Shown here: one piece after another, positions 1-12,194 of the stretch | Numbering within the stretch: position 1 is the first letter of the stretch | Layout of the letters: every line of letters starts with the position of its first letter | IMG/VR virus record: IMGVR_UViG_2778261465_000003 | Location: 1-13,814 of that record | Direction: 5' to 3' (one strand) | Origin: a virus | Lineage: Duplodnaviria > Heunggongvirae > Uroviricota > Caudoviricetes | DNA length: 13,814 nt | Program-made: the position numbers and the translations under genes | The notes under the pieces: generated by a model | What the model saw: the letters and a program-made list of their open reading frames with translations, nothing else | Database searches by the model: none | Told to the model about the DNA's origin: nothing

Positions 1-1074
1 TCATTTGTCGATTTCAATTTTGTCCCATTCCCGTCCACGGCTGTCCCTATACCGCGCCGCCATTGAATCTGATTTATGCCCGAGAAGACGTTGAGCAAAC
101 TTATCGCCAATCTGGTTCCGGTATAGCCTCGCTGACAGGCTACGCAGTTCATGGAATGTTGGCGGGTTTCCATCAAATGAGAGGCCAGATGCATTTCTCG
201 CCTTTGTAAAATACTTTGATACTGTTTTCGGGGAAAGCGGATCGTGATGCTTTGATGCGATTATAGTTTCACTGCTGCTGGCCTCCCTGCATTTCTGTAG
301 TGTATCAGCCAATGAGATATTGAGCGCGTCAATCGTTAGCGTTAGCGGAATGGCGAGTTTAGCCCCTGTTTTACTCTGTTTAATGTGAAGATGGTTGTCG
401 TTTATGTCTGACCATTTCATTCTGCACAAATCGCCGACTCTCTGCCCTGTAACGACGGCCAAATCCATCGCCAGCCTTAGCCAGATAGGGAGAGGTTCGG
501 CTGCATGGTAAATCTCGACATACTCATTAGCTGTCAGCCTTGAGCGCCTTACTTCTGACTTTGCTGTACGGGTTGCTGTTACCGGATTCGTTGCCACATG
601 CCCCTCGGCTATTGCTTCACGAAAAACGTCAACAAGGGTTGACCTGATTAATTTTGCGGAAGCTGCTTTACCTTCTGCTACGTAGGTGTTTAGCATTGCT
701 GCCACTTCTTTCGTTGATATGTCAGTGAGCGGTTTGTCCGGCAATTTTCTTCGGATTGCCCTGATTTTGCTGGCGTAGTCGAGTAGAGTTTTCGGCCTGA
801 TCCCCCTTTCGGTGAGGATTGTTTCATATCGGTCAAGCCACACATGAAGAGTGATTGCGTCACCGCCTTTAATTCTGTCTATTAGTGATTTGCGTCCGCT
901 GTCTGAGAGTAATTCAATATTGGCCTGTATTGCTTCAGTGATTGCTATCCTCCTGTCTCGGCCTAAACCAAACTCTTTACCCGTCCTTGGGTCCCTGTAG
1001 CAGTAATATCCATTGTTTCTTATATAAAGGTTAGGGGGTAAATCCCGGCGCTCATGACTTCGCCTTCTTCCCAT
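1..1074 (-). CDS. int: Phage integrase, tyrosine recombinase (lambda Int-like)
   Basis: 357-aa ORF, colinear with lambda Int as recalled: N-terminal arm-binding region MGRRRSHERRDLPPNLYIRNNGYYCYRDPRTGKEF and C-terminal catalytic region (HELRSLSARLY, LLGHKSD, ARYRD). Overlaps upstream xis by 23 nt as in lambda. Confidence 0.95.
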   Translation of the reverse strand: MGRRRSHERRDLPPNLYIRNNGYYCYRDPRTGKEFGLGRDRRIAITEAIQANIELLSDSGRKSLIDRIKGGDAITLHVWLDRYETILTERGIRPKTLLDYASKIRAIRRKLPDKPLTDISTKEVAAMLNTYVAEGKAASAKLIRSTLVDVFREAIAEGHVATNPVTATRTAKSEVRRSRLTANEYVEIYHAAEPLPIWLRLAMDLAVVTGQRVGDLCRMKWSDINDNHLHIKQSKTGAKLAIPLTLTIDALNISLADTLQKCREASSSETIIASKHHDPLSPKTVSKYFTKARNASGLSFDGNPPTFHELRSLSARLYRNQIGDKFAQRLLGHKSDSMAARYRDSRGREWDKIEIDK

Positions 1075-1270
1075 TTCTGATCCTCTTCAAAAGGCTACCT
1101 GTTACTGGTCGATTTAAGTCAACCTTTACCGCTGATTCGTGGAACAGATACTCTCTTCCATCCTTAACCGGAGGAGGGAATATCCTGCATTCGCGCACCC
1201 ATCGACGAACTGTTTCAAGGCTTCTTGGGCGTCGCTGGCGAGCGTTCCACTCCTGAAGTGTCAAGTACAT
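1052..1270 (-). CDS. xis: Excisionase (lambda Xis-like)
   Basis: Internal Met of track ORF 1052..1360 gives a 72-aa protein MYLTLQEWNARQRRPRSLETVRRWVRECRIFPPPVKDGREYLFHESAVKVDLNRPVTG, near-identical to lambda Xis as recalled. The 30 codons upstream in the track ORF are not Xis-like. Confidence 0.9.
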   Translation of the reverse strand: MYLTLQEWNARQRRPRSLETVRRWVRECRIFPPPVKDGREYLFHESAVKVDLNRPVTGSLLKRIRNGKKAKS

Positions 1271-1387
1271 CGCAAAGTCTCCGCAATTACACGCAAGAAA
1301 AAGCCGCATTGATGCGGCGATGGTAGGTCTGGATATCATTGAGCAATGAACAGGCCTCATCGAGTGTGAGGCGGTGTTATTTCATGG

Positions 1388-1648
1388 TTAGTCCTTGCGT
1401 AGCTCGCTGATTCTTCTGTAAGTCTCTGGTGCTTTGTTTCCGTGTATCTTCATTTCAGACTTCAACAGAGCAACGAGGGAATCCCATTCGTTGAGGATTC
1501 CTTTGAATGCCGGAACGCGCTTTGCAACCTTGTTGAATGAATCTCTGATTTCTGGAATCTGCTCAACAAGTGCAACGCATCGTCTGAAATCGGCTGCGTC
1601 ATGGGGAGCGCCGAAGTGATGACCATAGATATTCTTTTCAGTCCACAT
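1388..1648 (-). CDS. Hypothetical protein (86 aa), early-left accessory gene
   Basis: Track ORF with protein-like composition, immediately upstream of xis on the same strand. The overlapping alternative frame 1462..1758 begins inside a terminator hairpin. No family recognised. Confidence 0.5.
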   Translation of the reverse strand: MWTEKNIYGHHFGAPHDAADFRRCVALVEQIPEIRDSFNKVAKRVPAFKGILNEWDSLVALLKSEMKIHGNKAPETYRRISELRKD

Positions 1649-1744
1649 GCGATTGAGGCAAGAGTTGCGCTACTGATGCCGACATCGCCAGTCGATTGCC
1701 ATTTCAAAACCTTCATAGCCAAATCTGACATTTCTTGTCTCCAA

Positions 1745-1766
1745 TAAAAAACCGCCATCAGGCGGC
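1745..1766 (-). terminator. Intrinsic terminator (minus strand)
   Basis: Minus-strand reading GCCGCC-TGAT-GGCGGT (6-bp stem including one G.U) followed by six U; overlaps the stop codon of the 55-aa ORF. Confidence 0.5.
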
Positions 1767-1925
1767 TTGGTGTTCTTTCAGTTCTTCAATTCGAATATTG
1801 GTTACGTCTGCATGTGCTATCTGCGCCCATAGCATCCAGTGGTCATAGCAGTCATTGATGTTCTCTGCTTCGATAACTCTGTTGAATGGTTCTCCATTCC
1901 ATTCACCTGTGACTCGGAAGTGCAT
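1758..1925 (-). CDS. Small hypothetical protein (55 aa)
   Basis: Below the track threshold; translated by hand as MHFRVTGEWNGEPFNRVIEAENINDCYDHWMLWAQIAHADVTNIRIEELKEHQAA. GGAG Shine-Dalgarno 7 nt upstream of ATG; flanked by terminator hairpins on both sides. Confidence 0.35.
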   Translation of the reverse strand: MHFRVTGEWNGEPFNRVIEAENINDCYDHWMLWAQIAHADVTNIRIEELKEHQAA

Positions 1926-1936
1926 TTATCATCTCC

Positions 1937-1963
1937 ATAAAACAAAACTCGCCGTAGCGAGTT
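1937..1963 (-). terminator. Intrinsic terminator (minus strand) downstream of the DUF2513-like gene
   Basis: Perfect 7-bp stem AACTCGC / GCGAGTT with loop CGTA, followed on the minus strand by UUGUUUUAU. Confidence 0.45.
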
Positions 1964-2008
1964 CAGATATAATTTCCACCAAAGGCAGTAGTTGCTTGAT
2001 GCTAAGAA

Positions 2009-2437
2009 TTATTCAATATCTATTCCTGTAATATCTTTTATCTTTTTCCTTGCAAAGCCTTTTGCTAGTGATTTTGAAACACTCATAAGTGTACTAATTC
2101 CCTCATCCTTAAAGTTTGTTTTTATAGCTTGCCAGACATCCTTTTGACGTAAGTCAGCAATAAAATCATGCCCTCTTGCTGTCAACCTCAGTGGTACTTC
2201 GATCCAACTATATCCAACACCTTCCCCTAACGCTTTGGACATTATATGACCGAACCCAGGTTTTCCATCAACCCTGACTATTAATTCGTAGTCACATAAT
2301 AATCGCATATGGAAAATAAAATCTTGGTCATATCTATTAAAACCATTATCCTCTAGTTCACTAAGCATCGTGTCAGGGCCACGAGTTTTTTCGAATGCGA
2401 TAAGTAGATCTTTTAGATATTGCTGGTCTAATTTCAT
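2009..2437 (-). CDS. Hypothetical protein, possibly DUF2513-like (142 aa), AT-rich moron
   Basis: Track ORF with markedly lower GC than its neighbours (roughly mid-30s percent by eye). N-terminus MKLDQQYLKDLLIAFEK...YDQDFIFHMRLLCDYELIV resembles the DUF2513 pattern as recalled; weak assignment. Confidence 0.55.
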   Translation of the reverse strand: MKLDQQYLKDLLIAFEKTRGPDTMLSELEDNGFNRYDQDFIFHMRLLCDYELIVRVDGKPGFGHIMSKALGEGVGYSWIEVPLRLTARGHDFIADLRQKDVWQAIKTNFKDEGISTLMSVSKSLAKGFARKKIKDITGIDIE

Positions 2438-2465
2438 TGCCGCCTCCGTGACATGTCACAGAGAT

Positions 2466-2804
2466 TTATATCATTAATTTTGTTTCGTGCCAGCCTTTGG
2501 TCACCCAGCATTGTGAGTCACCATTACACGGGCATGAATTAACAGGAACTCTCTCGCCGCACTTACCGCAACGTTTTCTGCTGATCGATTTTATACGCCA
2601 GCGCACACGTGCATCATCCTGGCGGCTCAGTAACGCGATGTACTCACCAAACTCGCAAGGCGCACGCCTGAAGCGACGCGTGGCACAGTTACGCTCCAGC
2701 ATTTCAATTTCCTGAGCATCAAGTACAAGCTCCAGCTTACGCATACCGGATGATGCTTGCTTGGCTCTCTGATCGGCTTTGTGCTCTGTTGCTGATTTAG
2801 CCAT
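2466..2804 (-). CDS. Hypothetical Cys-rich protein (112 aa) with putative C-terminal zinc ribbon
   Basis: Track ORF; AGGAAA Shine-Dalgarno about 9 nt upstream of ATG at 2804. C-terminal CGKCGERVPVNSCPCNGDSQC (CxxC...CxC) and an N-terminal region with a possible ribbon-helix-helix-like beta strand (KLELVL). Confidence 0.5.
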   Translation of the reverse strand: MAKSATEHKADQRAKQASSGMRKLELVLDAQEIEMLERNCATRRFRRAPCEFGEYIALLSRQDDARVRWRIKSISRKRCGKCGERVPVNSCPCNGDSQCWVTKGWHETKLMI

Positions 2805-2848
2805 TCTGCTTTTCCTGCATCAGGAGAAAGACAATCATGGCGGCGCGG

Positions 2849-2944
2849 ATACTTCCGGTATCTTTTTACGCGATATTCCCCTTCAATGGCACATACAAAA
2901 AGAGAGCCATCCACAGGAGTGATTGAGGAATCGACAACCAGCAA
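2849..2944 (-). pseudogene. Relic of an S24 peptidase / repressor (UmuD, LexA, cI-type) C-terminal domain
   Basis: First about 32 codons of track ORF 2627..2944 (TTG start, stop immediately upstream) read LLVVDSSITPVDGSLFVCAIEGEYRVKRYRKY, resembling the UmuD core ([29 protein letters not shown]) and the lambda cI C-terminal domain as recalled. The rest of that ORF is out-of-frame overlap with the neighbouring gene. Confidence 0.4.
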
Positions 2945-2997
2945 CGCTTAATTATCTATAGTGTCGTATTTGCTTCATAAAATATGGCGAATAACAC

Positions 2998-3033
2998 AAA
3001 GCCCGCAGCAGCTCATTGTGCGGGCTTTTCTTA
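2998..3033. terminator. GC-rich hairpin, candidate bidirectional intrinsic terminator
   Basis: Perfect 10-bp inverted repeat AAAGCCCGCA / TGCGGGCTTT with an 11-nt loop, followed by TTTTCTT on the plus strand and a U-rich tract on the minus strand; sits between two minus-strand genes. Confidence 0.5.
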
Positions 3034-3097
3034 TACCTACTTCCTAGAGATAATTCTATGGAGGCATTAAATCAATACTGTCATTGGTAATATCATA

Positions 3098-3712
3098 TTA
3101 TCTAAAAGTCTTTCCACTTTTAACATCTAGGTATATTCTGTTCGACAACGTCATTCCTCCGCAATATGTGAAATAGATGTTTTCACCCTTATTGCTTGAT
3201 GCCATCCACCCTCCGATTTCCTTAAAATCGCTTTCCGTGCAGACCCCTTCATTTATTAACTTCCTAGCTGCCGAAGAAAACTCTTTTTTGTATATACGGT
3301 AGTCATCAGATCCTTTGATTAAAGTATCATCTCCGCTCGCATTTTCAGCAGGATCTGATGGCCTTTCACTGCTAAGATCACTAAGTTTAACCCATTCTGA
3401 AAACTTGCCATTAACGATTCCATTTTTTCTTGTGCAGGATTTATTACCTTCTTTAATATATTCGCTTTCCCCTCCAACACATGAGGCTGAATATGGCTCA
3501 GTTATACGAACCCATTCACCTTTTTTTTCTAGAAAATCTACGCCTTCCCTGAAAAATAGTTTCCCAGCCACTCCACATTTACTTGAAGGGCAGGTATGTC
3601 TTTCCGTTCGATCAACAACAACCCATAGTTTTGATTCATTTTTTGCCATTGCCGATGGTATTTGAGATGAGACAATTAACGTAAGCCCTAAAATTAGTAT
3701 TGATTTTTTCAT
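3098..3712 (-). CDS. Secreted Cys-rich protein of unknown function (204 aa, Sec signal peptide), AT-rich moron
   Basis: N-terminus MKKSILILGLTLIVSSQIPSAMA has a basic n-region, hydrophobic core and AxA cleavage motif. Six Cys in the mature part, consistent with periplasmic disulfides. Low GC; terminator hairpin downstream. Confidence 0.7.
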   Translation of the reverse strand: MKKSILILGLTLIVSSQIPSAMAKNESKLWVVVDRTERHTCPSSKCGVAGKLFFREGVDFLEKKGEWVRITEPYSASCVGGESEYIKEGNKSCTRKNGIVNGKFSEWVKLSDLSSERPSDPAENASGDDTLIKGSDDYRIYKKEFSSAARKLINEGVCTESDFKEIGGWMASSNKGENIYFTYCGGMTLSNRIYLDVKSGKTFR

Positions 3713-4010
3713 TGTAATTTCCTTTTACTTTTTACAAAGCGTTTAATCATGGCTGATTATCTCTAAGCGTAGTAACAGCCTTGTGCGAAACATGTTACCA
3801 AATCGCCATTTCAGTGTATCCGCAGTTAGGCTGCCACTTCAAGGATTCCTAATTACATGGTACGTAAGCGTAAAATCCCGTTGGTTGGCTGGTAATAACT
3901 CTGATCAAATCTCCCTTGTCTTTTGCTCTTACGTATGCAGCTCTTGTGTATTCAACCCAGGCCTCCAGTTCAGCAATACGCTTACTTCCATCCGAGATAA
4001 CACCTTCTAC

Positions 4011-4262
4011 TCACGCTGCTCGTTGAGTTTTGATTTTTGCTGTCTCCAGCTCAACACGCAGTTTCCCCACCGTTAGCGCAATATCCTCGTTCTCCTGGTC
4101 GCGGCGTTTGATGTATTGCTGGTTTCTTTCCCGTTCATCCAGCAGTGTCAGCACAATCGATGGTGTTACCAGCTCATGGAAAAGGTCCGCGTCAAATCCC
4201 CAGTTGTCATGCATTGCCTGCTCTGCCGCTTCACGCAGTGCCTGAGAGTGAATTACGCTCAC
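4011..4262 (-). CDS. Hypothetical protein (83 aa, GTG start), possibly truncated by an in-frame TGA
   Basis: Track ORF overlapping the upstream TraR-like gene by 4 nt (translational coupling). The same frame stays open for about 53 codons beyond the TGA, and a codon-matched antisense ORF (3783..4076) spans the junction. Confidence 0.45.
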   Translation of the reverse strand: MSVIHSQALREAAEQAMHDNWGFDADLFHELVTPSIVLTLLDERERNQQYIKRRDQENEDIALTVGKLRVELETAKIKTQRAA

Positions 4263-4480
4263 TTCGAACCTCTCTGTTTACTGATAAGCTCCAGATCTTC
4301 CTGGCAACTTGCACAAGTCCGACAACCCTGAACGGCCAGGCGTCTTCGCTCATCTATGGGATCGCCACACTCACAACAATGAGTGGCAGATACAGCCTGG
4401 TGGTTCAGGCGGCGCATTTTTATTGCTGTGTTGCGCTGTAATTCTTCAATTTCTGATGCTGAATCAATGATGTCTGCCAT
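4259..4480 (-). CDS. TraR/DksA family C4-type zinc-finger protein (73 aa)
   Basis: Motif CCECGDPIDERRRLAVQGCRTCASCQ (CxxC-x17-CxxC) near the C-terminus, typical of phage TraR/DksA-like proteins. Confidence 0.75.
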   Translation of the reverse strand: MADIIDSASEIEELQRNTAIKMRRLNHQAVSATHCCECGDPIDERRRLAVQGCRTCASCQEDLELISKQRGSK

Positions 4481-4534
4481 CTTCCATTAATCCCTGAATT
4501 GTTGGTTAATACGCTTGAGGATGAATGCGAACAA

Positions 4535-4556
4535 TAAAAAAGGAGCCTGTAGCTCC
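4535..4556 (-). terminator. Intrinsic terminator (minus strand)
   Basis: Minus-strand stem GGAGC / GCTCC with a 5-nt loop, followed by six U; 23 nt downstream of the gene ending at 4579. Confidence 0.5.
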
Positions 4557-4578
4557 CTGATGATTTTGCTTTTCATGT

Positions 4579-4794
4579 TCACCGTTCCTTAAAGACGCCG
4601 TTTAACATGCCGATCGCCAGGCTTAAATGAGTCGGTGTGAATCCCATCAGCGTTACCGTTTCGCGGTGCTTCTTTAGTACGCTACGGCAAATGTCATCGA
4701 CGTTTTTATCCGGAAACTGCTGTCTGGCTTTTTTGATTTCAGAATTAGCCTGACGGGCAATACTGCGAAGGGCGTTTTCCTGCTGATGTGTCAT
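4579..4794 (-). CDS. Hypothetical protein (71 aa from internal ATG; track ORF extends to 4860)
   Basis: Track ORF 4579..4860. The first 22 codons (MHFSGSGLHILCAYACRHGTCS) have no Shine-Dalgarno and odd composition, so the start at MTHQQENALRSIARQ... is preferred. Confidence 0.45.
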   Translation of the reverse strand: MTHQQENALRSIARQANSEIKKARQQFPDKNVDDICRSVLKKHRETVTLMGFTPTHLSLAIGMLNGVFKER

Positions 4795-4870
4795 TGAACA
4801 AGTCCCATGTCGGCAAGCATAAGCACACAGAATATGAAGCCCGCTGCCAGAAAAATGCATTCAGTGGTTG

Positions 4871-5062
4871 TCATACCTGGTCTCTCTCATCTGCTTCTGC
4901 TTTCGCCACCATCATTTCCAGCTTTTGTGAAAGGGATGCGGCTAACGTATGAAATTCTTCGTCTGTTTCTACTGGTATTGGCACAAACCTGACTCCAATT
5001 TGAGCGAGGCTATGTGCCATCTCAATGCTCGTTCTTAACTCAACAGGAGATGCTTTGTGCAT
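4871..5062 (-). CDS. Hypothetical protein (63 aa)
   Basis: Track ORF with a strong GGGGAG Shine-Dalgarno 4-5 nt upstream of ATG at 5062; acidic C-terminus. Confidence 0.5.
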   Translation of the reverse strand: MHKASPVELRTSIEMAHSLAQIGVRFVPIPVETDEEFHTLAASLSQKLEMMVAKAEADERDQV

Positions 5063-5176
5063 ACAGCTCCCCGTTTATTATTTATCTCCTCAGCCAGCCG
5101 CTGTGCTTTCAGGGGATTTCGGGTAACAGAAAGGCCGGGAAATACCCAGCCTCGCTTTGTAACGGAGTAGACGAAA

Positions 5177-5533
5177 GTGATCGCGCCTAACGGGGGCGGC
5201 GATTGGCAGGTTAAACCTGAACGTCGCAAGGCAGAACGAATCGACTACGAATCCTTCCTGAACGCCTACAACACCGAAGTCGGTGACAGACTTCCACACG
5301 CTGTTGCGGTCAACGAGAAACGAAAACGCCGCCTGAAGAAAATCATTCCGCAACTGAAAACGCCAAACGTGGACGGTTTCAGAGCGTATGTCAGGGCGTT
5401 TGTGCATCAGGCCAAGCCGTTTTACTTCGGAGACAACGACACGGGCTGGACGGCCGATTTTGATTACCTGCTGAGGGATGACTCGTTAACGGGGGTAACC
5501 GTACAGGTTTTACCTCGTCACGTGGCTTTCTGA
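5177..5533 (+). CDS. Possible C-terminal remnant of a phage replication-module protein (118 aa, GTG start)
   Basis: Protein-like ORF (...[25 protein letters not shown]) that begins directly after an in-frame stop with only GTG available. Tentative resemblance to the conserved C-terminal domain of phage replication proteins. The antisense ORFs 5090..5407 and 5035..5229 look like artefacts. Confidence 0.35.
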
Positions 5534-5885
5534 TGGCTGAAAGACGCTTTACCAGCTCGTCCATCGCCTGACTCGATGTATCGATGGTTCCGTTCTGAAT
5601 TGGTTCACGCATTTCATCCATGATTTCCAGCACCAGGCGGCGGTGATAGTTATCCGCGACCATTCCGGCATATCCCTTCAGGTTTGCGGCACTCGGGCAG
5701 TTTTTGCTGGTCATCAGGATTGACGTGAAATGCTCCTCTCCGCACGCCTCGGCAACCATCAGCGCGTCGATTAGGTTTCTGTTTCTCGCCTGCTTGCGGA
5801 TAACCTCGAAGGCTTTCCGGTAGAGCGGAATTGAAAACGCTTCCGGCTCCAGCGTTGCCAGAACGTCGCTGGCGGTTGGTGTTAA
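5500..5885 (-). pseudogene. DnaB-like replicative helicase N-terminal domain fragment, inverted relative to the nin/late genes
   Basis: Minus-strand translation ...[73 protein letters not shown]... is colinear with the E. coli DnaB N-terminal domain as recalled (...FYTRPHRHIF...LSKNTPSAANISAYADIVRERAVVREMI...). No ATPase domain is present; similarity is lost at about 5885. Confidence 0.55.
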
Positions 5886-6349
5886 AGGCAGCAGAGAAGA
5901 AACGACGACGAGAGGAGCAGAAACAGAAAGATAAACTTAAGATTCGAAAACTCGCCTTAAAGCCCCGCAGTTACTGGATTAAACAAGCCCAACAAGCCGT
6001 AAACGCCTTCATCAGAGAAAGAGACCGCGACTTACCATGTATCTCGTGCGGAACGCTCACGTCTGCTCAGTGGGATGCCGGGCATTACCGGACAACTGCT
6101 GCGGCGCCTCAACTCCGATTTGATGAACGCAATATTCACAAGCAATGCGTGGTGTGCAACCAGCACAAAAGCGGAAATCTCGTTCCGTATCGCGTCGAAC
6201 TGATTAACCGCATCGGGCAGGAAGCAGTAGACGAAATCGAATCAAACCATAACCGCCATCGCTGGACTGTCGAAGAGTGCAGGGCCATCAAGGCGGAGTA
6301 TCAACAGAAACTTAAAAAACTGCGAAACAGCAGAAGTGAGGCTGCATGA
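5831..6349 (+). CDS. ninG: NinG (Rap)-like recombination protein, N-terminus replaced or truncated
   Basis: From [56 protein letters not shown]... to the end it is colinear with lambda NinG as recalled. The first 18 residues ([21 protein letters not shown] start) are unrelated and lambda's N-terminal Cys-rich region is absent. Confidence 0.8.
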
Positions 6350-7017
6350 ATATCTACGAAAGAATTGATGGCAGCAAATACCGAAATATTTGGGTAGTTG
6401 GCGATCTGCACGGATGCTACACGAACCTGATGAACAAACTGGATACGATTGGATTCGACAACAAAAAAGACCTGCTTATCTCGGTGGGCGATTTGGTTGA
6501 TCGTGGTGCAGAGAACGTTGAATGCCTGGAATTAATCACATTCCCCTGGTTCAGAGCTGTACGTGGAAACCATGAGCAAATGATGATTGATGGCTTATCA
6601 GAGCGTGGAAACGTTAATCACTGGCTGCTTAATGGCGGTGGCTGGTTCTTTAATCTCGATTACGACAAAGAAATTCTGGCTAAAGCTCTTGCCCATAAAG
6701 CAGAAGAACTTCCGTTAATCATCGAACTGGTGAGCAAAGGTAAAAAATATGTCATCTGCCACGCCGATTATCCTTGTGACGAATACGAATTTGGAAAGCC
6801 AGTTGATCATCAGCAGGTAATCTGGAACCGCGAACGAATCAGCAACTCACAAGACGGGATCGTTAAAGAAATTAAAGGCGCGGACACGTTTATCTTTGGT
6901 CATACGCCAGCAGTGAAACCACTCAAATTTGCCAACCAGATGTATATCGATACTGGGGCAGTGTTCTGCGGAAATCTCACATTGATTCAGGTACAGGGAG
7001 AAGGCGCGTGGGCATAA
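6346..7017 (+). CDS. ninI: Ser/Thr protein phosphatase (lambda PPase, orf221/NinI-like metallophosphatase)
   Basis: 223 aa, near-identical to lambda phosphatase as recalled ([54 protein letters not shown]...GNHEQMM). GDLHG / GDLVDRG / GNHE metallophosphatase motifs; ATGA overlap with ninG. Confidence 0.95.
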
Positions 7018-7496
7018 GAGAACTAAACCTCACCAAAGAACAGCATGAGTGGCTGAATGGCTGGCTTGAACTGTGGGGCGCATGGGTTTATTCAGGTCGT
7101 CTGGAAAAGCGCATGAGCAGCGTAATAGCGAAGTTCATGGAGAGCGTAGAGCCGGGAAGAGTTATGACAAGGCCAATGTGTAATGATGATGATGGAATGT
7201 TGATTTCTCAGGTCGTCGATTCCGTCATGTACATTGACAAGAAAGCCTTTGGCATCCTCCTCAGCTACTACGCCCACGGCTCTTCCAAGCACGCCATTGC
7301 ATCTTACTATCATCGCGTCGCAAGACCTCGCAAGATGTTATGCCGGGGCGGCGGGCGCATTCAAAAACCATCGCTCGCAACCTGTCGACGGGAAGTTGAC
7401 GAAATCCTCAATGCCTCGTTGTTTATGATTTACCCGGTTCTGGATAGTGCGTTTAAAAACCGGAAACGTGTAGAGAAAATTAAACATGTAGCATAG
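7008..7496 (+). CDS. Q: Late-gene antiterminator Q (Phage_antitermQ family, Q21/Q82-like)
   Basis: 162 aa with WGAW near the N-terminus and the [13 protein letters not shown] motif typical of this Q family; sits just upstream of a promoter-like TTGACA and the lysis cassette. Start is a GTG overlapping the phosphatase stop. Confidence 0.85.
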
Positions 7497-7502
7497 AACG
7501 TG

Positions 7503-7540
7503 TTGACATCATTGAGCAAATGAGCAACACTATTCGCATA
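7503..7540 (+). promoter_or_regulatory. Candidate late promoter (pR'-like) and Q-utilisation region
   Basis: Consensus -35 TTGACA at 7503..7508, immediately after Q and upstream of a hairpin plus T-run. No convincing -10 at 17 +/- 1 bp, so the call rests on position and the -35 only. Confidence 0.3.
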
Positions 7541-7541
7541 A

Positions 7542-7583
7542 GCTGCCGTTAGTGACTCTTAAGTTGCAACGGTGGCTTTTTTT
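7542..7583 (+). terminator. Candidate tR'-like intrinsic terminator
   Basis: 9-bp stem GCTGCCGTT / AACGGTGGC (two G.U pairs) with a 17-nt loop, followed by seven T. The large loop makes this moderate. Confidence 0.4.
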
Positions 7584-7587
7584 ATTT

Positions 7588-7662
7588 GGGTCAGTCGTAT
7601 AAAGGTCATTACGGAAGGCTGTTAACCTTCTTATCGTGGTTCGAGTCCACGCTGTCCCGCCA
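7588..7662 (+). tRNA. tRNA-Asn (anticodon GUU)-like, one acceptor-stem mismatch
   Basis: Hand-folded cloverleaf: acceptor GGGTCAG / CTGTCCC (T.T at pair 4-69), D-loop AAAGGTCA, anticodon stem GAAGG / CCTTC, loop CTGTTAA (anticodon GTT), T-arm CGTGG-TTCGAGT-CCACG, discriminator G, encoded CCA. Anticodon and T loops match E. coli tRNA-Asn as recalled. Confidence 0.6.
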
Positions 7663-7667
7663 AATAT

Positions 7668-7743
7668 GCTGGTTTAGCTCCAATGGTAGAGCGGTCGCCT
7701 TGTAAGCGAATGGGTAGCGGTTCAAGTCCGTTAACCAGCACCA
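7668..7743 (+). tRNA. tRNA-Thr (anticodon UGU)-like
   Basis: Hand-folded cloverleaf: perfect 7-bp acceptor GCTGGTT / AACCAGC, D-arm GCTC-CAATGGTA-GAGC, anticodon stem GTCGC / GCGAA (27-43 mismatch), loop CTTGTAA (anticodon TGT), T-arm AGCGG-TTCAAGT-CCGTT, discriminator A, encoded CCA. Confidence 0.7.
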
Positions 7744-7861
7744 TAACTGAGCCGTAGCCACTGGATGTCCTGAATTCATCAGTGATAGTTATGCTGCGGT
7801 CTTCTTTTTCTCCCTTCCCAATATAAGAACTACGCAATCCGTTACTGGCGGAGGCGTTGCT

Positions 7862-8077
7862 ATGAAATCAATGGACAAAATCTCAACTGGCATTGCCTAC
7901 GGAACATCCGCTGGTAGTGCGGGATACTGGTTTTTGCAGTGGTTGGATCAGGTCAGTCCATCACAGTGGGCTGCGATTGGGGTGCTTGGAAGCCTTGTGT
8001 TGGGCTTTCTCACCTATCTGACAAATCTGTACTTCAAAATCAGAGAAGACAGAAGAAAGGCTGCGAGAGGTGAATAA
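7862..8077 (+). CDS. S: Class II holin (phage 21 S21-type pinholin) with dual-start motif
   Basis: 71 aa, [71 protein letters not shown], matches phage 21 S21 as recalled. Met1-Lys-Ser-Met4 gives antiholin and holin starts; two transmembrane segments. Confidence 0.95.
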
Positions 8078-8574
8078 TGCCTCCATCATTACGAAAAGCC
8101 GTTGCTGCGGCTATTGGTGGCGGGGCTATTGCTATAGCATCTGTGTTAATCACTGGCCCAAGTGGTAACGATGGTCTGGAAGGCGTCAGCTACATACCAT
8201 ATAAAGATATCGTTGGTGTATGGACTGTATGTTACGGGCATACCGGAAAAGACATTATGCTCGGTAAAACGTATACCAAAGCAGAATGCAAAGCCCTCCT
8301 GAATAAAGACCTTGCCACTGTCGCCAGACAAATTAACCCGTACATCAAAGTCGATATACCGGAAACAACGCGCGGCGCTCTTTACTCGTTCGTTTACAAC
8401 GTTGGTGCTGGAAATTTCAGAACATCGACGCTTCTTCGCAAAATAAACCAGGGCGATATCAAAGGCGCATGTGATCAGCTACGGCGCTGGACATACGCTG
8501 GCGGTAAGCAATGGAAAGGTCTCATGACTCGTCGTGAGATTGAGCGTGAAGTCTGTTTATGGGGGAAGCAATGA
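8077..8574 (+). CDS. R: SAR endolysin (phage 21 R21-like, T4-lysozyme fold)
   Basis: 165 aa. N-terminal signal-anchor-release domain rich in Gly/Ala ([20 protein letters not shown]) followed by a lysozyme domain ([18 protein letters not shown]...); matches phage 21 R as recalled. Start overlaps the holin stop. Confidence 0.95.
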
Positions 8575-8969
8575 AGATCCACTACAAGATAATTATCTTC
8601 GCGTTCGCGTTCGCATTGAGCGTACTGGGCGTCATCGTTTGGTCAGCAAGCCATTATCACGATAAGTATCAGGCGGAACGGCTACGCGCAGATGCTGCCG
8701 AGCAGAACGCCAACGCCGCCGAAGCGATCACCGCCAACGTCATTCGGTCTGTGAACATCATCAACGCCATTGCAGAGGCCAACCAGGATGCAAAGAACCA
8801 GATCACACTGGAGTCACAGGGAGCCCAAGCAGATATCAAAGTGGCTATTGAGAATGATGACTGCGCTCATCGGCCTGTGCCTCCTGCAACTGCTCACCGG
8901 CTGCGGCAATTCGCGGACAGTTTACGTACCGGTATCGGTAGTGCCTCTACCGGCAAACCTGACAGCTGA
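8571..8969 (+). CDS. Rz: i-spanin (Rz-like inner-membrane spanin)
   Basis: N-terminal transmembrane segment ([20 protein letters not shown]) then an Ala/Gln/Glu-rich periplasmic region; directly follows the endolysin; GGGGGAAG Shine-Dalgarno before ATG 8571 (track ORF starts at 8559). Confidence 0.8.
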
Positions 8970-9111
8970 GACGCAACAGCCAGCCATTCCCGAACCGCTG
9001 ACCTATGGGGCCAGTCTGGAGCTGAATGTTAGCCTGCTATCGGCGCTGGGTCAGTGCAACATCGATAAGGCTAGTATCAGGAAGATTGAAGAGTCTCGGA
9101 CCTCTCTGTAG
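8854..9111 (+). CDS. Rz1: o-spanin (Rz1-like outer-membrane lipoprotein), overlapped architecture
   Basis: +1 frame starting inside Rz: [17 protein letters not shown] with lipobox LTGC, then a Pro-rich mature region ([20 protein letters not shown]). Runs 142 nt past the Rz stop. Confidence 0.75.
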   Translation: MMTALIGLCLLQLLTGCGNSRTVYVPVSVVPLPANLTAETQQPAIPEPLTYGASLELNVSLLSALGQCNIDKASIRKIEESRTSL

Positions 9112-9147
9112 AAGACTATTTTGCTGCCATGAAGAAGCTTTATATCT

Positions 9148-9177
9148 TTGGTCAATACATCGAACAGATCAGATAAT
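9148..9177 (+). promoter_or_regulatory. Candidate sigma70 promoter for the protease gene
   Basis: TTGGTC, 18-bp spacer, GATAAT in the AT-rich spacer after Rz1, about 55 nt upstream of the protease ATG. Confidence 0.35.
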
Positions 9178-9231
9178 TCTTATGTGATTGATGCTATATT
9201 TATCCCCTATTTAAACATGGGAGTTACGGAT

Positions 9232-10032
9232 ATGTCTGTCAGTCAAGATATTTATAAGTCTACACTTAGAGTTGAAAGTGATACTCCAGAGGGAACCTCG
9301 GTAGGAACTGCTTTCTGGTTTTGCTTTGTTATGGAAGGTGGTGAAGATATTGTTCCACTCTTGGTAACTAATAAGCATGTTGTTAACGGGGCAACAGAAG
9401 TTAGACTACGTCTAAACATTACCGACAGCGCAAATCCTGAGATAAAATTTTATAACCTAACAATTTCAGAGGGGGCAAATGCGTTCATTATGCACCCTGA
9501 TGATAATGTTGATATATGCATATTGCCTATCGCTGGATTGCTGAATGAGATGGAGAAAAGTGGCATTAGCCCAGAACTCTTCTTTTTCACAGATCGTCAG
9601 ATGCGTGGTAACAATTACATTACTCCTGTCGAAGATGTTTACATGACAGGATATCCAAATGGATTATGGGATTCTGTAAACAATAGGCCTGTTACCAGGA
9701 AAGGCATCACAGCATCATCACCTATGGAAAACTGGAAGGGTAAGCCTGAATTCCTCATTGATATGGCTTGTTTCGGTGGTTCTAGCGGTTCTCCCGTTTA
9801 TATAATGAACCAAGGCTCATATGCTACTAATGATGGTATTGCTATGGGGGAGAGATTAATTTTCCTTGGGTTGTTGTATGCAGGGCCAGTAACGAATGTT
9901 AGCGGGAATATTGAAATTATTGACGTACCAACAGTCGCTACACCAGTTGTGCGTTCTGAAATTACAATGAATCTCGGATTTGTTATTAAAGCAGAGAAGC
10001 TAAATGACTTTAAGCCTCTCTTGGGGATTTAA
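9232..10032 (+). CDS. Cytoplasmic trypsin-like serine protease (chymotrypsin fold, Trypsin_2-like), AT-rich accessory gene
   Basis: 266 aa from ATG 9232 (GGGAG Shine-Dalgarno 8 nt upstream; track ORF starts at a TTG at 9148). Catalytic triad in canonical order and context: His in LLVTNKHVV, Asp in DDNVDICILPIAG, Ser in GGSSGSPVY. No signal peptide or transmembrane segment. GC clearly lower than the flanking phage genes. Confidence 0.75.
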   Translation: MSVSQDIYKSTLRVESDTPEGTSVGTAFWFCFVMEGGEDIVPLLVTNKHVVNGATEVRLRLNITDSANPEIKFYNLTISEGANAFIMHPDDNVDICILPIAGLLNEMEKSGISPELFFFTDRQMRGNNYITPVEDVYMTGYPNGLWDSVNNRPVTRKGITASSPMENWKGKPEFLIDMACFGGSSGSPVYIMNQGSYATNDGIAMGERLIFLGLLYAGPVTNVSGNIEIIDVPTVATPVVRSEITMNLGFVIKAEKLNDFKPLLGI

Positions 10033-10037
10033 CACAA

Positions 10038-10059
10038 GCCGCCTCCGGACGGTTTTTTT
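10038..10059 (+). terminator. Possible weak intrinsic terminator after the protease gene
   Basis: Imperfect GC hairpin (CCGCC..GGACGG) followed by seven T, beginning 6 nt after the protease stop. Confidence 0.4.
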
Positions 10060-10071
10060 ATTGCTATTACA

Positions 10072-10097
10072 AAAGCCACTCCATGCCGAGTGGCTTT
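10072..10097. repeat. Perfect 10-bp inverted repeat (stem-loop)
   Basis: AAAGCCACTC-catgcc-GAGTGGCTTT. Could be a minus-strand terminator (short U tract follows on that strand) or a protein or RNA structural site. Confidence 0.5.
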
Positions 10098-10165
10098 GAT
10101 AATGGCTTATACCCTACACGGGATAACTTAACTGATATCCCAACAAGCGGATAAAGAGGTTCTCA

Positions 10166-10291
10166 ATGTCCGACATCTACCAAATCATGTTAACCACCCA
10201 AACAGGCGAAACCTTTACGGGTAAGATGTCACGACGTCAGCGTGAGCTGGTTAATGGCTTTATGCAGCCGGCTACCGAGATGGGCGAGTAG
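10166..10291 (+). CDS. Small hypothetical protein (41 aa)
   Basis: Below track threshold; MSDIYQIMLTTQTGETFTGKMSRRQRELVNGFMQPATEMGE, with AAGAGG Shine-Dalgarno 6 nt upstream of ATG. Confidence 0.35.
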   Translation: MSDIYQIMLTTQTGETFTGKMSRRQRELVNGFMQPATEMGE

Positions 10292-10380
10292 AATAACTCC
10301 ATTAGGAGAATGTGGAACCATTACACTTTGAGCCGTTAACTGATATTGATAAAGGTAAATAATATCGTGGTTAAGGTTTT

Positions 10381-10653
10381 CTAATAGCCAGCCATTTGCA
10401 AAATCACAGTTGCAGCAGCAGCGAAAGCTGCATATGAGTTATATTTAGACTGTAACCGCGCAGTTAAGAAAAATTCGTGAAGATCTACATTTTTTTGGGG
10501 ATCATCAAATGTAATTGCTACAACGGTGCTTCTACCTGTTTTGACTTTGGCTGTTGCTGATTTGATCCATAACCCAGCCGATAAAAAACCAAAGAAAATT
10601 GATAGTGTATGATGGTCAATTAACCAGTTTTTAATTAGTAATAAATCACTCAT
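10381..10653 (-). CDS. Small hydrophobic (putative membrane) protein, about 90 aa, AT-rich
   Basis: Track ORF 10381..10698, start taken at internal ATG 10653 because the track start lies inside terS. One clear hydrophobic segment (LSIFFGFLSAGLWI) and a hydrophobic C-terminus. An open frame this long is unlikely by chance in AT-rich DNA. Convergent with the protease unit. Confidence 0.45.
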   Translation of the reverse strand: MSDLLLIKNWLIDHHTLSIFFGFLSAGLWIKSATAKVKTGRSTVVAITFDDPQKNVDLHEFFLTARLQSKYNSYAAFAAAATVILQMAGY

Positions 10654-10677
10654 TTTCAATCCAATTGAGACTTTGCC

Positions 10678-11229
10678 ATGGCACTCACCGACAAACAAGA
10701 AATGTTCTGTCGCGAGTACCTCATCGATTTAAACGCCACACAAGCGGCTATTCGGGCGGGGTACAGCGCAAAGACAGCCAACCGTACTGCGTCCGAAAAC
10801 ATGTCAAAACCTGACATCAAGTTAAGAATCGCTGAACTGAAAGCGCAACGCAATGATCTTGTTGGTATTAATGCAGAATATGTACTTAATCGCCTTCTTG
10901 AAATCGACCAGATGGATGTGCTTGACATTCTCCTGCAAAACGGTGAGCTAAAACCCATTAAAGACTGGCCTAAGGTATGGCGCACAACGCTATCAGGAAT
11001 GGATGTCGTGGAGATGGTATCCGCAGATAGCGCCGCACTTCTGAAGAAAATCAAATGGCCTGATAAGGTTAAAAATCTTGAGTTGCTTGGGCGTCATGTT
11101 TCTGTTCAGGCGTTTAAAGACAATGTCAAAAATGAAGTGACTGGCGCTGATGGAGGACCAGTCAGAACAGAAATTACCAACTTAACGCCGGAGCAGGCTG
11201 CAGAGGCGTATAGAAAAATGATGGGCTAA
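10678..11229 (+). CDS. Terminase small subunit (Terminase_2-like, N-terminal helix-turn-helix)
   Basis: 183 aa; N-terminal [57 protein letters not shown] is characteristic of phage TerS; immediately followed by the large subunit. Confidence 0.85.
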
Positions 11230-11231
11230 GT

Positions 11232-12194
11232 ATGCCGTTACCATTCCCCTTCGATTTTAAACATCCTGATTACCAGATGGTTTTTGAATGGCGGATGGAA
11301 CGCCTACAGCGCATTCGCCAGAATCCTGAAATATTGCCCGTGTTGAAGCAGTTTTACCGAACCAATCCGGCTCAGTTCATCATCGACTGGGGCATGACAA
11401 CGGACCCGCGTAATATTGATTATGGCCTGCCGGTAACCATTCCGTTTTTACTCTTCCCTAAGCAGGAGGAGTGGATCCACTGGATTATGGAACGCTGGAG
11501 CAATCGGGAGAATGGTATTACCGAAAAATCCCGTGAAATGGGGCTCAGTTGGACCGCGATCGGACTGGCCTGCTCGCTTTGTCTCTTCAACAAAGAAATG
11601 GTTATCGGTTTCGGCTCCCGTAAAGAGGAATACGTCGACAGCACCGGTGACCCGAAAGCATTGTTCTGGAAGGCGCGCAAGTTCGTGGAAACACTACCTG
11701 TAGAGTTTCGCGGTTCGTGGAGCGAGAAGAAGCACGCGCCATATATGCGTGTTGAGTTTCCTGAAACTGGTGCCGTTATCAAAGGCGAGGCTGGCGATAA
11801 TATTGGTCGTGGTGACCGTACCACGCTTTATCTGGTTGATGAGGCTGCATTCCTTCAGCGTCCTCTGCTGATTGATGCGGCGTTGTCACAAACGACGCGT
11901 TGCCGTATTGACCTGAGTTCAGTTAACGGCATGGCGAACCCGTTCGCTCAGAAGCGTCATGGCGGGAAGATACCGGTATTCACATTCCACTGGCGGGATG
12001 ATCCTCGCAAGGATGAAGAGTGGTATCGCAGGGAATGCGAGAAAATCGATAATCCGGTGGTGGTGGCACAGGAACTTGATCTGAACTACAGCGCATCAGC
12101 GGAAGGCGTCCTGATTCCATCCGAATGGGTACAGGCTGCCGTTGATGCGCATATCAAACTGGGTATGGTGCTGTTTCTAATGTTACCGGTGTAA
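11232..12194 (+). CDS. Terminase large subunit, ATPase domain only (C-terminal nuclease domain missing)
   Basis: 320 aa with a Walker-B-like [10 protein letters not shown] and TerL-like N-terminal half, but far shorter than an intact TerL of this type, which is usually well over 400 aa. The ORF ends in a short non-homologous tail where another frame takes over. Confidence 0.8.

Follow-up and report, generated by a model that had tools for sequence, protein, structure and literature searches.

How the replication region of this lambdoid prophage was lost, and what now stands in its place, is the question raised by this locus. The window, the whole stretch of 13,814 nucleotides that was analyzed, belongs to a prophage that sits between torS and torT of the E. 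coli draft genome GCA_002485495.1. Comparison with intact relatives indicates that positions 5186-6349 are made up of three gene fragments with three novel junctions: an O-like fragment on the plus strand, an inverted helicase fragment, and ninG without its first 146 nt. It is very probable that this region is a scar left by decay of a defective lambdoid prophage, that it has no function, and that it originated by microhomology-mediated illegitimate recombination. The element has the marks of a defective prophage: the int gene (window 1-1074) adjoins torS in the source contig, orf63, O, the helicase gene, and ninG are all cut internally, and terL is cut at 12166. The torS site is also occupied in the WAT and KSC64 prophages, with torT at the far side. 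The scar is ordinary prophage decay, a known kind of remnant, and the recurrence of its left breakpoint is the unexpected part. Alone it is of little importance; it is a base-by-base record of one prophage losing immunity and replication.

The gene fragments and their junctions

The left arm of the element is conserved up to a cut gene. Window positions 1-5189 are 99.96% identical to positions 20001-25189 of the WAT locus (L007). The last piece of this conserved exo-xis arm is an orf63-like DUF1317 remnant on the minus strand (5035..5189), which retains codons 10-60 and has lost its first 28 nt. Its Pfam match covers positions 10-60 of 60, compared with 1-60 in the intact WAT copy. WAT occupies the same torS-torT site and has Q, tRNA, lysis, and terminase genes in common with the window, but it is complete and has a lambda-type O/P replication module.

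The second piece is part of an O-like replication initiator of the HK97/HK544 type (5186..5497, plus strand). By blastn, window positions 5186-5496 have 96.8-97.7% identity to nt 475-785 of the 822-nt gene in HK544 and E. coli prophages (L004, L005, L008), and the best match is the STEC1587 prophage at 97.7%. The match extends to 5497 with the allele GGGGGTA/CGGG (the slash marks the breakpoint, here and below), which is present in intact genes. The fragment thus spans nt 475-786, or codons 159-262 of 273, and 38% of the gene is retained. A preliminary description of this DNA had tentatively read the plus-strand ORF at 5177-5533 as the tail of a replication protein, and this reading was correct. 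Missing from the fragment are Phage_rep_O, the repeats of the origin, and the final 11 codons. Phage_rep_O (residues 19-113) is the sole Pfam domain of the full initiator, and the origin repeats and A/T-rich tract lie upstream of the O breakpoint.

The third piece encodes only the N-terminal domain of a DnaB-type replicative helicase, on the minus strand. Window positions 5496..5885 correspond in inverted orientation to nt 441 to 52 of the 1377-nt gene (codons 18-147) with 96.2-99.5% identity; the closest gene is that of the GF131 prophage (99.5%), and identity to HK544 is 98.2%. The Pfam match to the DnaB N-terminal domain (E = 6e-11) bears out the earlier identification of this fragment. The RecA-like ATPase domain DnaB_C, residues 171-423 of the full helicase, is absent, and 28% of the gene is retained. 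The fragment is oriented opposite to O', ninG, and Q, while intact relatives have these genes co-directional. It had been stated previously that lambdoid replication genes normally share a strand with nin and Q, and in HK544, HK446, and the prophages of STEC1587 and WAT one strand does carry the initiator, the helicase or P, the nin genes, and Q. Both scraps come from the HK97/HK544/HK446-type module, which consists of a gp54-like initiator and a gp55-like DnaB helicase and matches them at 96-99.5% nucleotide identity. In contrast to the scar, both genes of the module are complete and co-directional and overlap by 4 nt.

The last piece is a 5'-truncated ninG on the plus strand (5884..6349), containing nt 147-612 (codons 50-203) and no native start codon. 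This mapping agrees with the ninG joint placed earlier at about 5885. From 5884 to 8574 the window is 98.6% identical to WAT. The NinG Pfam match covers profile positions 43-192 of 193, compared with 1-192 in the intact gene, and begins at residue 17 of a chimeric 172-aa ORF with a TTG start (5831..6349). In this ORF, 17-18 antisense helicase codons are fused to NinG residues 50-203. The earlier observation that NinG similarity begins at residue 19 is consistent with this, both being counted from the spurious TTG at 5831. The ORF has neither a whole NinG/Rap profile nor a native start, since it begins within antisense helicase sequence. Expression of the truncated NinG appears doubtful, because no promoter-like site was found on the plus strand between 4800 and 6400 and no gene was called at 5831..6349 in the gene list of the source assembly. 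No Rfam family was found within the scar, and a non-coding RNA reading was dropped.

The other long ORF of the scar is also composite. The 118-aa ORF with a GTG start (5177..5533, plus strand) spans the first two junctions and is not a native gene. It is made up of 4 antisense orf63 codons, O codons 160-262, and 11 antisense helicase codons. A Pfam search of it gave no domain, and in a large protein collection the exact product is on record on one contig only. Both ORFs are accidental chimeras rather than genes, and annotators should be warned of this. Chance resemblance can be considered excluded for the O', helicase, and ninG pieces themselves, because their identity is 96-99.5% over 311-466 nt.

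Alignment to intact lambdoid genomes, which the preliminary description had suggested as a check, placed the breakpoints at 5186-5189, 5496-5497, and 5884-5885, and each coincides with a short microhomology. At the first junction (J1, 5186..5189) the left arm GCGCCTA/CCCGG and O CCCCCTA/ACGGGGG share the four nucleotides CCTA. At J2 (5496..5497) O GGGGGTA/CGGG and the helicase reverse complement CCCCTA/ACCG share TA. At J3 (5884..5885) the helicase reverse complement GGTGTTAA/TCC and the WAT allele of ninG, GGAAAA/GGCAGCAG, share AA without filler. Convergence of the two replication fragments had been described at about 5535; the converging fragments are real, but they meet at 5496/5497, and 5535 is only the stop codon of the ORF. 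What looks like filler ("AG" or "G") or point mutation at the three junctions vanishes when the right alleles are used (O CCTAAC, O GGGGGTA, and ninG AAAAGG).

A repeat search found nothing longer than the microhomologies at the joints except a 9-nt direct repeat, TAACGGGGG. Its two copies, at 5188..5196 (plus strand) and 5487-5495, bound the O' fragment, and the first is the right half of the origin palindrome CCCCC-TAAC-GGGGG. The intact origin site is predicted to fold as a significant DNA hairpin (z = -3.5), and the breakpoint of J1 on the O side is within the loop of the palindrome. A natural module boundary was rejected as an explanation of this breakpoint, as the boundary seen in natural mosaics is at O nt ~448 and not 475. 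The ORFs listed for the window include no IS or transposase gene, Pfam matches around the scar are to phage genes only, with no mobile element or recombinase at the joints, and there are no Chi sites in the window. What recurs at the joint partners is no more than a loose G/C-rich ...TA motif, and no extended consensus was found. The block at 8561-10120 was considered as a further scar and rejected; L223 matches all of it at 99.5% identity, and it is a natural module.

Reconstruction of the loss

The probable ancestor would have had arms like those of the window and an HK97/HK544-type module, with an O-like initiator containing an internal origin followed by a DnaB-type helicase. Such a combination exists: the intact STEC1587 prophage has the same exo-xis and nin/Q/lysis genes together with an HK97-type module, and this type of module is found in 725 of 5426 complete E. 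coli genomes. Illegitimate recombination at microhomologies of 2-4 nt removed about 10 kb. The losses comprise the start of orf63, exo, bet, gam, kil, cIII, N, the immunity genes, and cII, as well as the first 474 nt of O (including the origin repeats), the greater part of the helicase gene, ninB/E/F, and the first 146 nt of ninG. What was retained is a pair of scraps from immediately to the right of the origin, O nt 475-786 in direct and helicase nt 52-441 in inverted orientation.

The mapped structure fits the earlier proposal of at least one inversion plus deletions. The first deletion is about 7.3 kb, from orf63 codon 10 to O nt 475, and 84 bp are missing between O nt 785 and the start of the inverted helicase segment at nt 52. 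The loss up to ninG nt 147 is about 1.9-3.0 kb. Measured against WAT, 694 bp stand in for 8572 bp, a loss of 8.57 kb from the start of orf63 through red, N, immunity, and replication to ninB-F.

The remaining element probably neither replicates nor is inducible. Removal of the immunity region and most of the replication module had been proposed, and N, the immunity genes, the origin repeats, the DNA-binding domain of the initiator, and the helicase ATPase are indeed absent. The further proposal that the element cannot replicate autonomously is sound, because it would have no repressor, N, origin, initiator DNA-binding domain, or helicase motor.

The three junctions may have arisen in one complex template-switch event rather than in separate events. 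The preferred sub-model is one replicative event of the MMBIR/FoSTeS kind, in which templates were switched serially, and its probability appears a little better than even. A 3' end would have quit the left arm at ...GCGCCTA and primed at CCTA in the origin hairpin loop. After 311 nt had been copied, the end would have switched strands at TA, copied 390 nt backwards, and finally switched at AA into ninG. MMBIR predicts junction microhomology of 2-5 bp, complexity, and inverted segments from nearby (PMC2621351). The scar has three joints with microhomology in this range (CCTA, TA, and AA) and no long homology, and its segments of 312 and 390 nt are natively 84 bp apart, with the second inverted, so that the overall pattern is deletion-inversion-deletion. 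The model was developed to explain copy-number variants of eukaryotes (PMC2621351), however, while the scar lies in a bacterial prophage and is net loss only. E. coli illegitimate recombination has been described as similar to MMEJ (PMC11372144). Alternatively, a deletion would have been followed by a small inversion and then by a second deletion that took one inversion joint, and the chance of this is somewhat less than even. Intermediates with only J2 or only J3 were absent from the collections searched, which is weak evidence on one versus several events.

An ancestor of a different type is possible but unlikely. The closest intact sibling, WAT, has lambda-type O/P rather than an HK97-type module, so the fragments could be captured foreign DNA. 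A lambda-type ancestor would then have undergone a single 8.57-kb deletion that was sealed with two HK97-type pieces, one of them inverted, from another phage or a co-resident prophage. The near identity of the left arm to WAT agrees with this, as do the different best matches of the two pieces (STEC1587 for O' and GF131 for the helicase fragment). However, the pieces are natively only 84 bp apart and keep their native order, which is easier to explain if they were local. In addition, intact prophages pair the same arm genes with an HK97-type module, and no trace of lambda-type O, P, or ren is left.

A recurrent left-arm breakpoint

The breakpoint at the left arm is found in other elements. 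Among the matches listed in surveys of about 120 loci each, the same left-arm nucleotide (...GCGCCTA/) is present in at least eight different junctions. Each of these left arms is closest to an intact arm, with up to 100% identity, and they look independent. All six right partners with recoverable native sequence have TA at the crossover, five with a preceding G/C triplet. The GTTAA site in bet is used in three junction types, and the terL'-baseplate J' scar elsewhere in the window also reads ...GGGTAT/. Recurrence of the left-arm site and of several partner sites is not predicted by purely stochastic microhomology and is an objection to the preferred origin of the scar.

Two elements illustrate the recurrence. 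DLP12 is a cryptic lambdoid prophage of K-12 with exoD, peaD, and renD pseudogenes. A DLP12-like element of KFu019 (L001) resembles the window in having a lambda-like int/xis/exo-xis arm that an internal deletion has fused to an incomplete replication gene; nin, Q, and lysis genes follow downstream, and its deletion starts at exactly the left-arm nucleotide of the window. In contrast to the scar, this is a simple deletion into the 3' end of a lambda-type O, with P and ren intact and no inverted piece, and the element occupies argU instead of torS and encodes another integrase. The deleted P22-like prophage of 24AR0180 (L002) lacks immunity and helicase genes and has an O' fragment with the same two ends as that of the window (the loop of the origin palindrome and ...GGGGGTA/). 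Its flanks are different: to the left of the fragment is what remains of a ral/N region, and to the right an incomplete gene that precedes ninB. It has no inverted helicase piece, and its ninG is intact. The two O' fragments differ at 8/309 nt, and common descent is not evident.

Common descent of the joints was rejected for L001 (left end of J1), L002 (both O' ends), and L003 (a ninG breakpoint within 0-4 nt of that in the window); the interiors of these elements differ. Simple descent fails because each left arm resembles an intact arm more closely than it does any of the other left arms, and because the O' fragment of L002 is 2.6% divergent from that of the window. In unbiased IMG/VR samples no hot spot was found at ninG or O nt 785 beyond the window, L003, and L002.

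A site-preferring process could explain the shared ends, and as the origin of the scar it is a quite unlikely alternative to recombination at chance microhomologies. It would involve a nuclease or stall that gives a 3' end after a G/C-rich ...TA sequence, or a recombinase that recognizes pseudo-sites and has a 2-nt crossover. The independent left arms, the partner TA and G/C triplets, the bet site, the ends shared with L002, and the second scar of the window all point in this direction. However, there is no recombinase or IS at the joints and no extended consensus at the partner sites. DNA structure at the left-arm site is not significant (z = +0.2 to +0.6), and a left end that closes in TA makes the TA of the partners trivial. 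Of the recognition or target sequences compared by eye with the junction motifs (CCNGG/CCSGG restriction sites, IS5/IS630 targets, XerC/dif, RuvC/RusA preferences, MOBQ nic sites, and REP heads), none fits all of the sites. No mirror-image hot spot retaining the exo side was found, and a one-sided hot spot can also be explained by selection on what may be deleted.

It is tentatively suggested that lambdoid prophages have preferred deletion starts, at ...GATCGCGCCTA/ (orf63-like codon 10), at the origin hairpin loop, and at other G/C-rich ...TA sites, but this is doubtful. A candidate process is a fixed 3' end, which a stall or nick would leave on the strand synthesized in the same direction as host replication and which may prime onward at microhomologies of 2-4 nt. 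Such priming could occur during abortive in situ replication from the trapped prophage origin. If preferred starts are real, prophage decay is partly driven by a defined process, and if the hot spot holds in a full census, E. coli prophage domestication is not purely random erosion.

Occurrence of the scar and ongoing decay

The scar is known from one draft contig in a single assembly. Searches of IMG/VR, JGI metagenomes, and GTDB species genomes found none of the 22-23-mers across J2 and J3, and none of the complete E. coli genomes spans the scar region. With one observation in a short-read draft genome, the inverted 390-bp piece and the joints might be mis-joins of repeated prophage sequence; O and helicase sequences recur from prophage to prophage, and the origin repeats in O are where many draft contigs end. 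This is very improbable, since graph assemblers need overlaps of tens of bases and the joints share 2-4 nt. Three consecutive mis-joins within 700 bp of one 70-kb contig are also unlikely, and equivalent scars are present in finished genomes (L001, L002, and L003).

The most improbable explanation is that a fragment has been domesticated and kept against incoming phages of the same type, either the helicase-recruiting C-terminal part of O in the 118-aa ORF or the DnaB N-terminal domain in a minus-strand ORF (5391-5759). The reported inhibition of lambda replication depends on origin repeats, and these are gone from the scar. Three reading frames are all open across the joints, and segments of the lambda replication region, when cloned, reportedly keep phages with the same replication type from replicating (PMC3349717), but the plus strand has no promoter-like site, the start codons are non-native (GTG and TTG), and occurrence in one genome gives no sign of selective retention.

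Comparison of the same locus in related strains was also proposed in the preliminary description. WAT is intact, and KSC64 (L368), which has the same integrase protein as WAT (WP_000533666.1), is decayed differently from the window: the stretch from immunity to lysis was lost through a joint between N and Rz1, and terL is intact. The window itself has a second, independent scar, in which terL' is joined to baseplate J' at 12158-12166. Together, this second scar and the KSC64 remnant show ongoing decay.

Structure of the scar

The element is a lambdoid prophage remnant. The window, the final 13.8 kb of a 69.9-kb contig (NCBI assembly GCA_002485495.1), opens on the stop codon of a lambda-type integrase gene that adjoins torS. 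To the left of the scar, int, xis, and an exo-xis-like set (Ea22-like, TraR/DksA zinc finger, DUF1382, DUF1317) lie on the minus strand. To its right the plus strand carries, in order, a 5'-truncated ninG and genes for a Ser/Thr phosphatase, Q, tRNA-Asn, tRNA-Thr, holin, and lysozyme, followed by an Rz-like gene, a trypsin-like ORF, terS, a truncated terL, and baseplate genes. The tRNA-Asn (GTT) and tRNA-Thr (TGT) genes, at 7588-7662 and 7668-7743 between Q and the holin gene, are also kept in the prophages of E. coli WAT, STEC1587, and 24AR0180. A 204-aa minus-strand ORF in the exo-xis arm (3098-3712) has a signal-peptide-like N-terminus and belongs to no Pfam family; it is kept in WAT as hypothetical protein WP_000748282.1 and may be a moron.

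When compared by local blastn with phage HK544 and a number of E. coli prophages, the scar separates into three gene pieces. Nucleotides 475-785 of an O-like initiator gene (822 nt) form 5186-5496 on the plus strand (96.8-97.7% identity). Nucleotides 441 down to 52 of a DnaB-type helicase gene (1377 nt) follow in inverted orientation at 5496-5885 (96.2-99.5%), and ninG nt 147-612 occupy 5884-6349 on the plus strand (97-98.6%). Pfam recognises a minus-strand DnaB N-terminal domain (E = 6e-11) and a NinG match starting at profile position 43. The replication-protein-like tail, inverted DnaB-like fragment, and truncated ninG of the preliminary description are thus all real, and its view that replication genes share a strand with nin and Q agrees with all intact relatives, where the initiator and helicase genes are read in the same direction as the nin genes and Q. 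Its breakpoint near 5535 has to be moved, since the initiator and helicase pieces meet at 5496/5497 and ~5535 is the stop codon of the chimeric ORF.

No function is expected of the scar. The element has lost its repressor, N, the origin repeats, the DNA-binding domain of the initiator, and the helicase motor. Pfam matches nothing in the 118-aa plus-strand ORF, and Phage_rep_O (residues 19-113), the sole Pfam domain of the intact initiator, falls in the deleted part. Helicase codons 18-147 remain, and the DnaB_C ATPase domain (residues 171-423) lies outside them. The ninG piece has neither its native start nor 49 of its codons. The long ORFs at 5177-5533 and 5831-6349 have GTG and TTG starts inside antisense sequence of the neighbouring fragments. 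The scar failed all tests for a functional replication module or a complete NinG.

All three joints show short microhomology, and once each is aligned with the matching natural alleles every base is accounted for. At J1 (5186-5189) the left arm GCGCCTA/CCCGG meets O CCCCCTA/ACGGGGG, sharing CCTA. At J2 (5496-5497) O GGGGGTA/CGGG, an allele found intact in seven IMG/VR contigs, meets reverse-complement helicase CCCCTA/ACCG, sharing TA. At J3 (5884-5885) reverse-complement helicase GGTGTTAA/TCC meets ninG GGAAAA/GGCAGCAG, the WAT allele, sharing AA. A 9-nt direct repeat, TAACGGGGG, bounds the initiator piece, and the repeat search found no longer repeat at the joints. The window contains no IS or transposase ORF and no Chi site, the scar no Rfam family, and the plus strand at 4800-6400 no promoter-like site. 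The O-side breakpoint of J1 falls in the loop of the origin palindrome CCCCC-TAAC-GGGGG; of the sites tested, this palindrome alone gives a significant single-stranded DNA fold (z = -3.5).

Two further sequence features lie at the breakpoints. The inverted helicase piece opens with TAACCGTACAGGTTTTACCT (5496-5515) and the initiator piece with TAACGGGGG...CAGGTTAAACCT (5188-5223), so that the helicase gene appears to hold, inversely oriented, a motif pair resembling the origin palindrome region of the initiator. The ninG breakpoint sits in an A-rich imperfect tandem, GAAAAAGCGGAAAAAGCAG (ninG nt ~125-150, on the 5884-5890 side; locus L154). Alleles of ninG with a 12-nt duplication of the A-rich unit exist, which suggests that the tract is slippage-prone.

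Ancestor and extent of decay

At the same torS site, E. coli WAT carries a prophage that appears complete. The window matches it at 1-5189 (99.96% identity), 5884-8574 (98.6%), and 10102-12166 (97.5%). The interval separating the first two blocks measures 8572 bp in WAT and 694 bp in the window. In WAT it comprises the initial 28 nt of the orf63-like gene; exo, bet, gam, kil, cIII, and ral; the repressor gene, cro, and cII; O, P, and ren; and ninB, ninE, ninF, and the initial 146 nt of ninG. The replication genes of WAT are lambda-type, whereas the STEC1587 prophage pairs the same exo-xis and ninG-to-terL genes with an HK97-type initiator and helicase, making it the better ancestor model. On this model the losses are 7303 bp at J1, 84 bp between O nt 785 and helicase nt 52, and 1934 bp between helicase nt 441 and ninG nt 147. 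Of 5426 complete E. coli genomes, 725 carry the HK97-type module. Many draft-assembly proteins of the initiator (P0002-P0015, the cluster of the 118-aa ORF) are partial and start at or just after GGG(D/N)GQ, which means that draft contigs frequently end at the origin repeats, in keeping with the mosaic boundary that some 300 complete genomes show at O nt ~448.

The structure is a new instance of a well-known class, the eroded lambdoid prophages, alongside DLP12-like elements, the KSC64 remnant, and the deleted P22-like prophage of 24AR0180. A second scar, at 12158-12166, fuses the first 935 nt or so of terL to the portion of a baseplate J/gp47 gene that encodes the C-terminus, with a 9-nt overlap, ACTGGGTAT. 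Relative to KSC64 and WAT, the window lacks the whole portal-to-baseplate stretch. The KSC64 remnant, of the same prophage family at torS-torT, has an N/Rz1 joint and a truncated head morphogenesis gene and keeps terL and portal intact. Independent decay of this family is thus directly visible, and the complete WAT copy, KSC64, and the window form a natural series for studying prophage erosion. At 8561-10120 the Rz-like gene and a 294-aa trypsin-like (Trypsin_2) ORF replace WAT sequence. This block is 99.5% identical throughout to IMG/VR locus L223, indicating a natural mosaic module and not a scar.

Origin of the rearrangement

The scar matches the formal features of a microhomology-mediated complex rearrangement. 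There are three novel joints with 2-4 nt of microhomology, and the inverted 390-bp segment natively lies 84 bp from the kept 312-bp segment, giving a deletion-inversion-deletion pattern. A single replicative event with several template switches could produce it. In the MMBIR model, 3' tails anneal at 2-5 bp of microhomology to nearby single-stranded DNA, and low-processivity synthesis is followed by further switches (PMC2621351). Illegitimate recombination in E. coli also resembles microhomology-mediated end joining (PMC11372144).

A single event is the somewhat better reading. Over 5.2 kb, only about 2 positions of the left arm differ from an intact sibling, a serial route needs three rare events inside 700 bp, and intermediates are absent from the 5426 complete genomes, IMG/VR, JGI metagenomes, and GTDB species genomes. 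The serial route, which has a substantial if smaller chance of being correct, would start with the J1 deletion, continue with an inversion, and end with a deletion removing one inversion joint; the inversion would have been of either O786-helicase441 or helicase52-ninG146. The exact 118-aa product is on record from a single contig. The joints are nevertheless unlikely to be assembly errors, since assemblers rely on long overlaps and only 2-4 nt are shared here; finished genomes also hold comparable scars.

A recurrent left-arm breakpoint

The recurrent breakpoint is the only feature of the scar that might repay further work. The survey covered IMG/VR loci with a 26-mer 53 nt left of the breakpoint, among the matches listed (up to about 120 loci), together with further loci already in the comparison. 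At least 98 loci run on into exo as in WAT, while at least eight, the window included, diverge at position 52-55. The shared endpoint ...GATCGCGCCTA/ is codon 10 of the orf63-like DUF1317 gene (5186-5189), and the right partner differs in each. It is the origin loop of HK97-type O in the window, the middle of lambda O in L028, the 3' end of lambda O in L001 (the DLP12-like element of E. coli KFu019), ren in L018, sequence upstream of a DUF1364 gene in L039, sequence just upstream of rusA in a DLP12-like nin region in L115, a lysozyme gene in L127, and a Mu-like baseplate gene in L133. Every junction-bearing left arm (853 nt) is more similar to some intact arm than to any of its junction-bearing counterparts; identity to an intact arm reaches 100% for three of them and 99.8% for the window's. 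This comparison of arms argues for repeated independent deletions.

The left-arm hot spot is one-sided. Among the matches listed, the survey anchored on the exo side has no mirror-image hot spot, and unbiased samples add no joints at the ninG site or at O-785. DNA structure at the left-arm site is unremarkable. TA stands at the crossover in all six native partners recovered (from six of the eight loci), preceded in five by a G/C-rich triplet. Together with the one-sidedness, this TA rule would fit a defined 3' end priming at terminal microhomology. Selection on the deletable side, combined with survey sampling, remains an alternative explanation for the clustering.

Other breakpoints are also reused. 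In the 24AR0180 prophage, an initiator piece at 4998-5306 has both ends as in the window (the origin-palindrome loop and ...GGGGGTA/); it differs at 8 of 309 nt, and both flanks are unrelated to the window's. The bet site ...CGTTAA/ serves in three different joints. These lie at ...CATCGTTA(A)/, 950-951 nt right of the survey anchor, in L003 (a finished-genome scar, at ~9688), L087, and L123, and lead to ninG nt ~147, the gam/kil region, and a Q region. The ninG truncation of L003 is within 0-4 nt of J3, and the left partners of both joints end in GTTAA.
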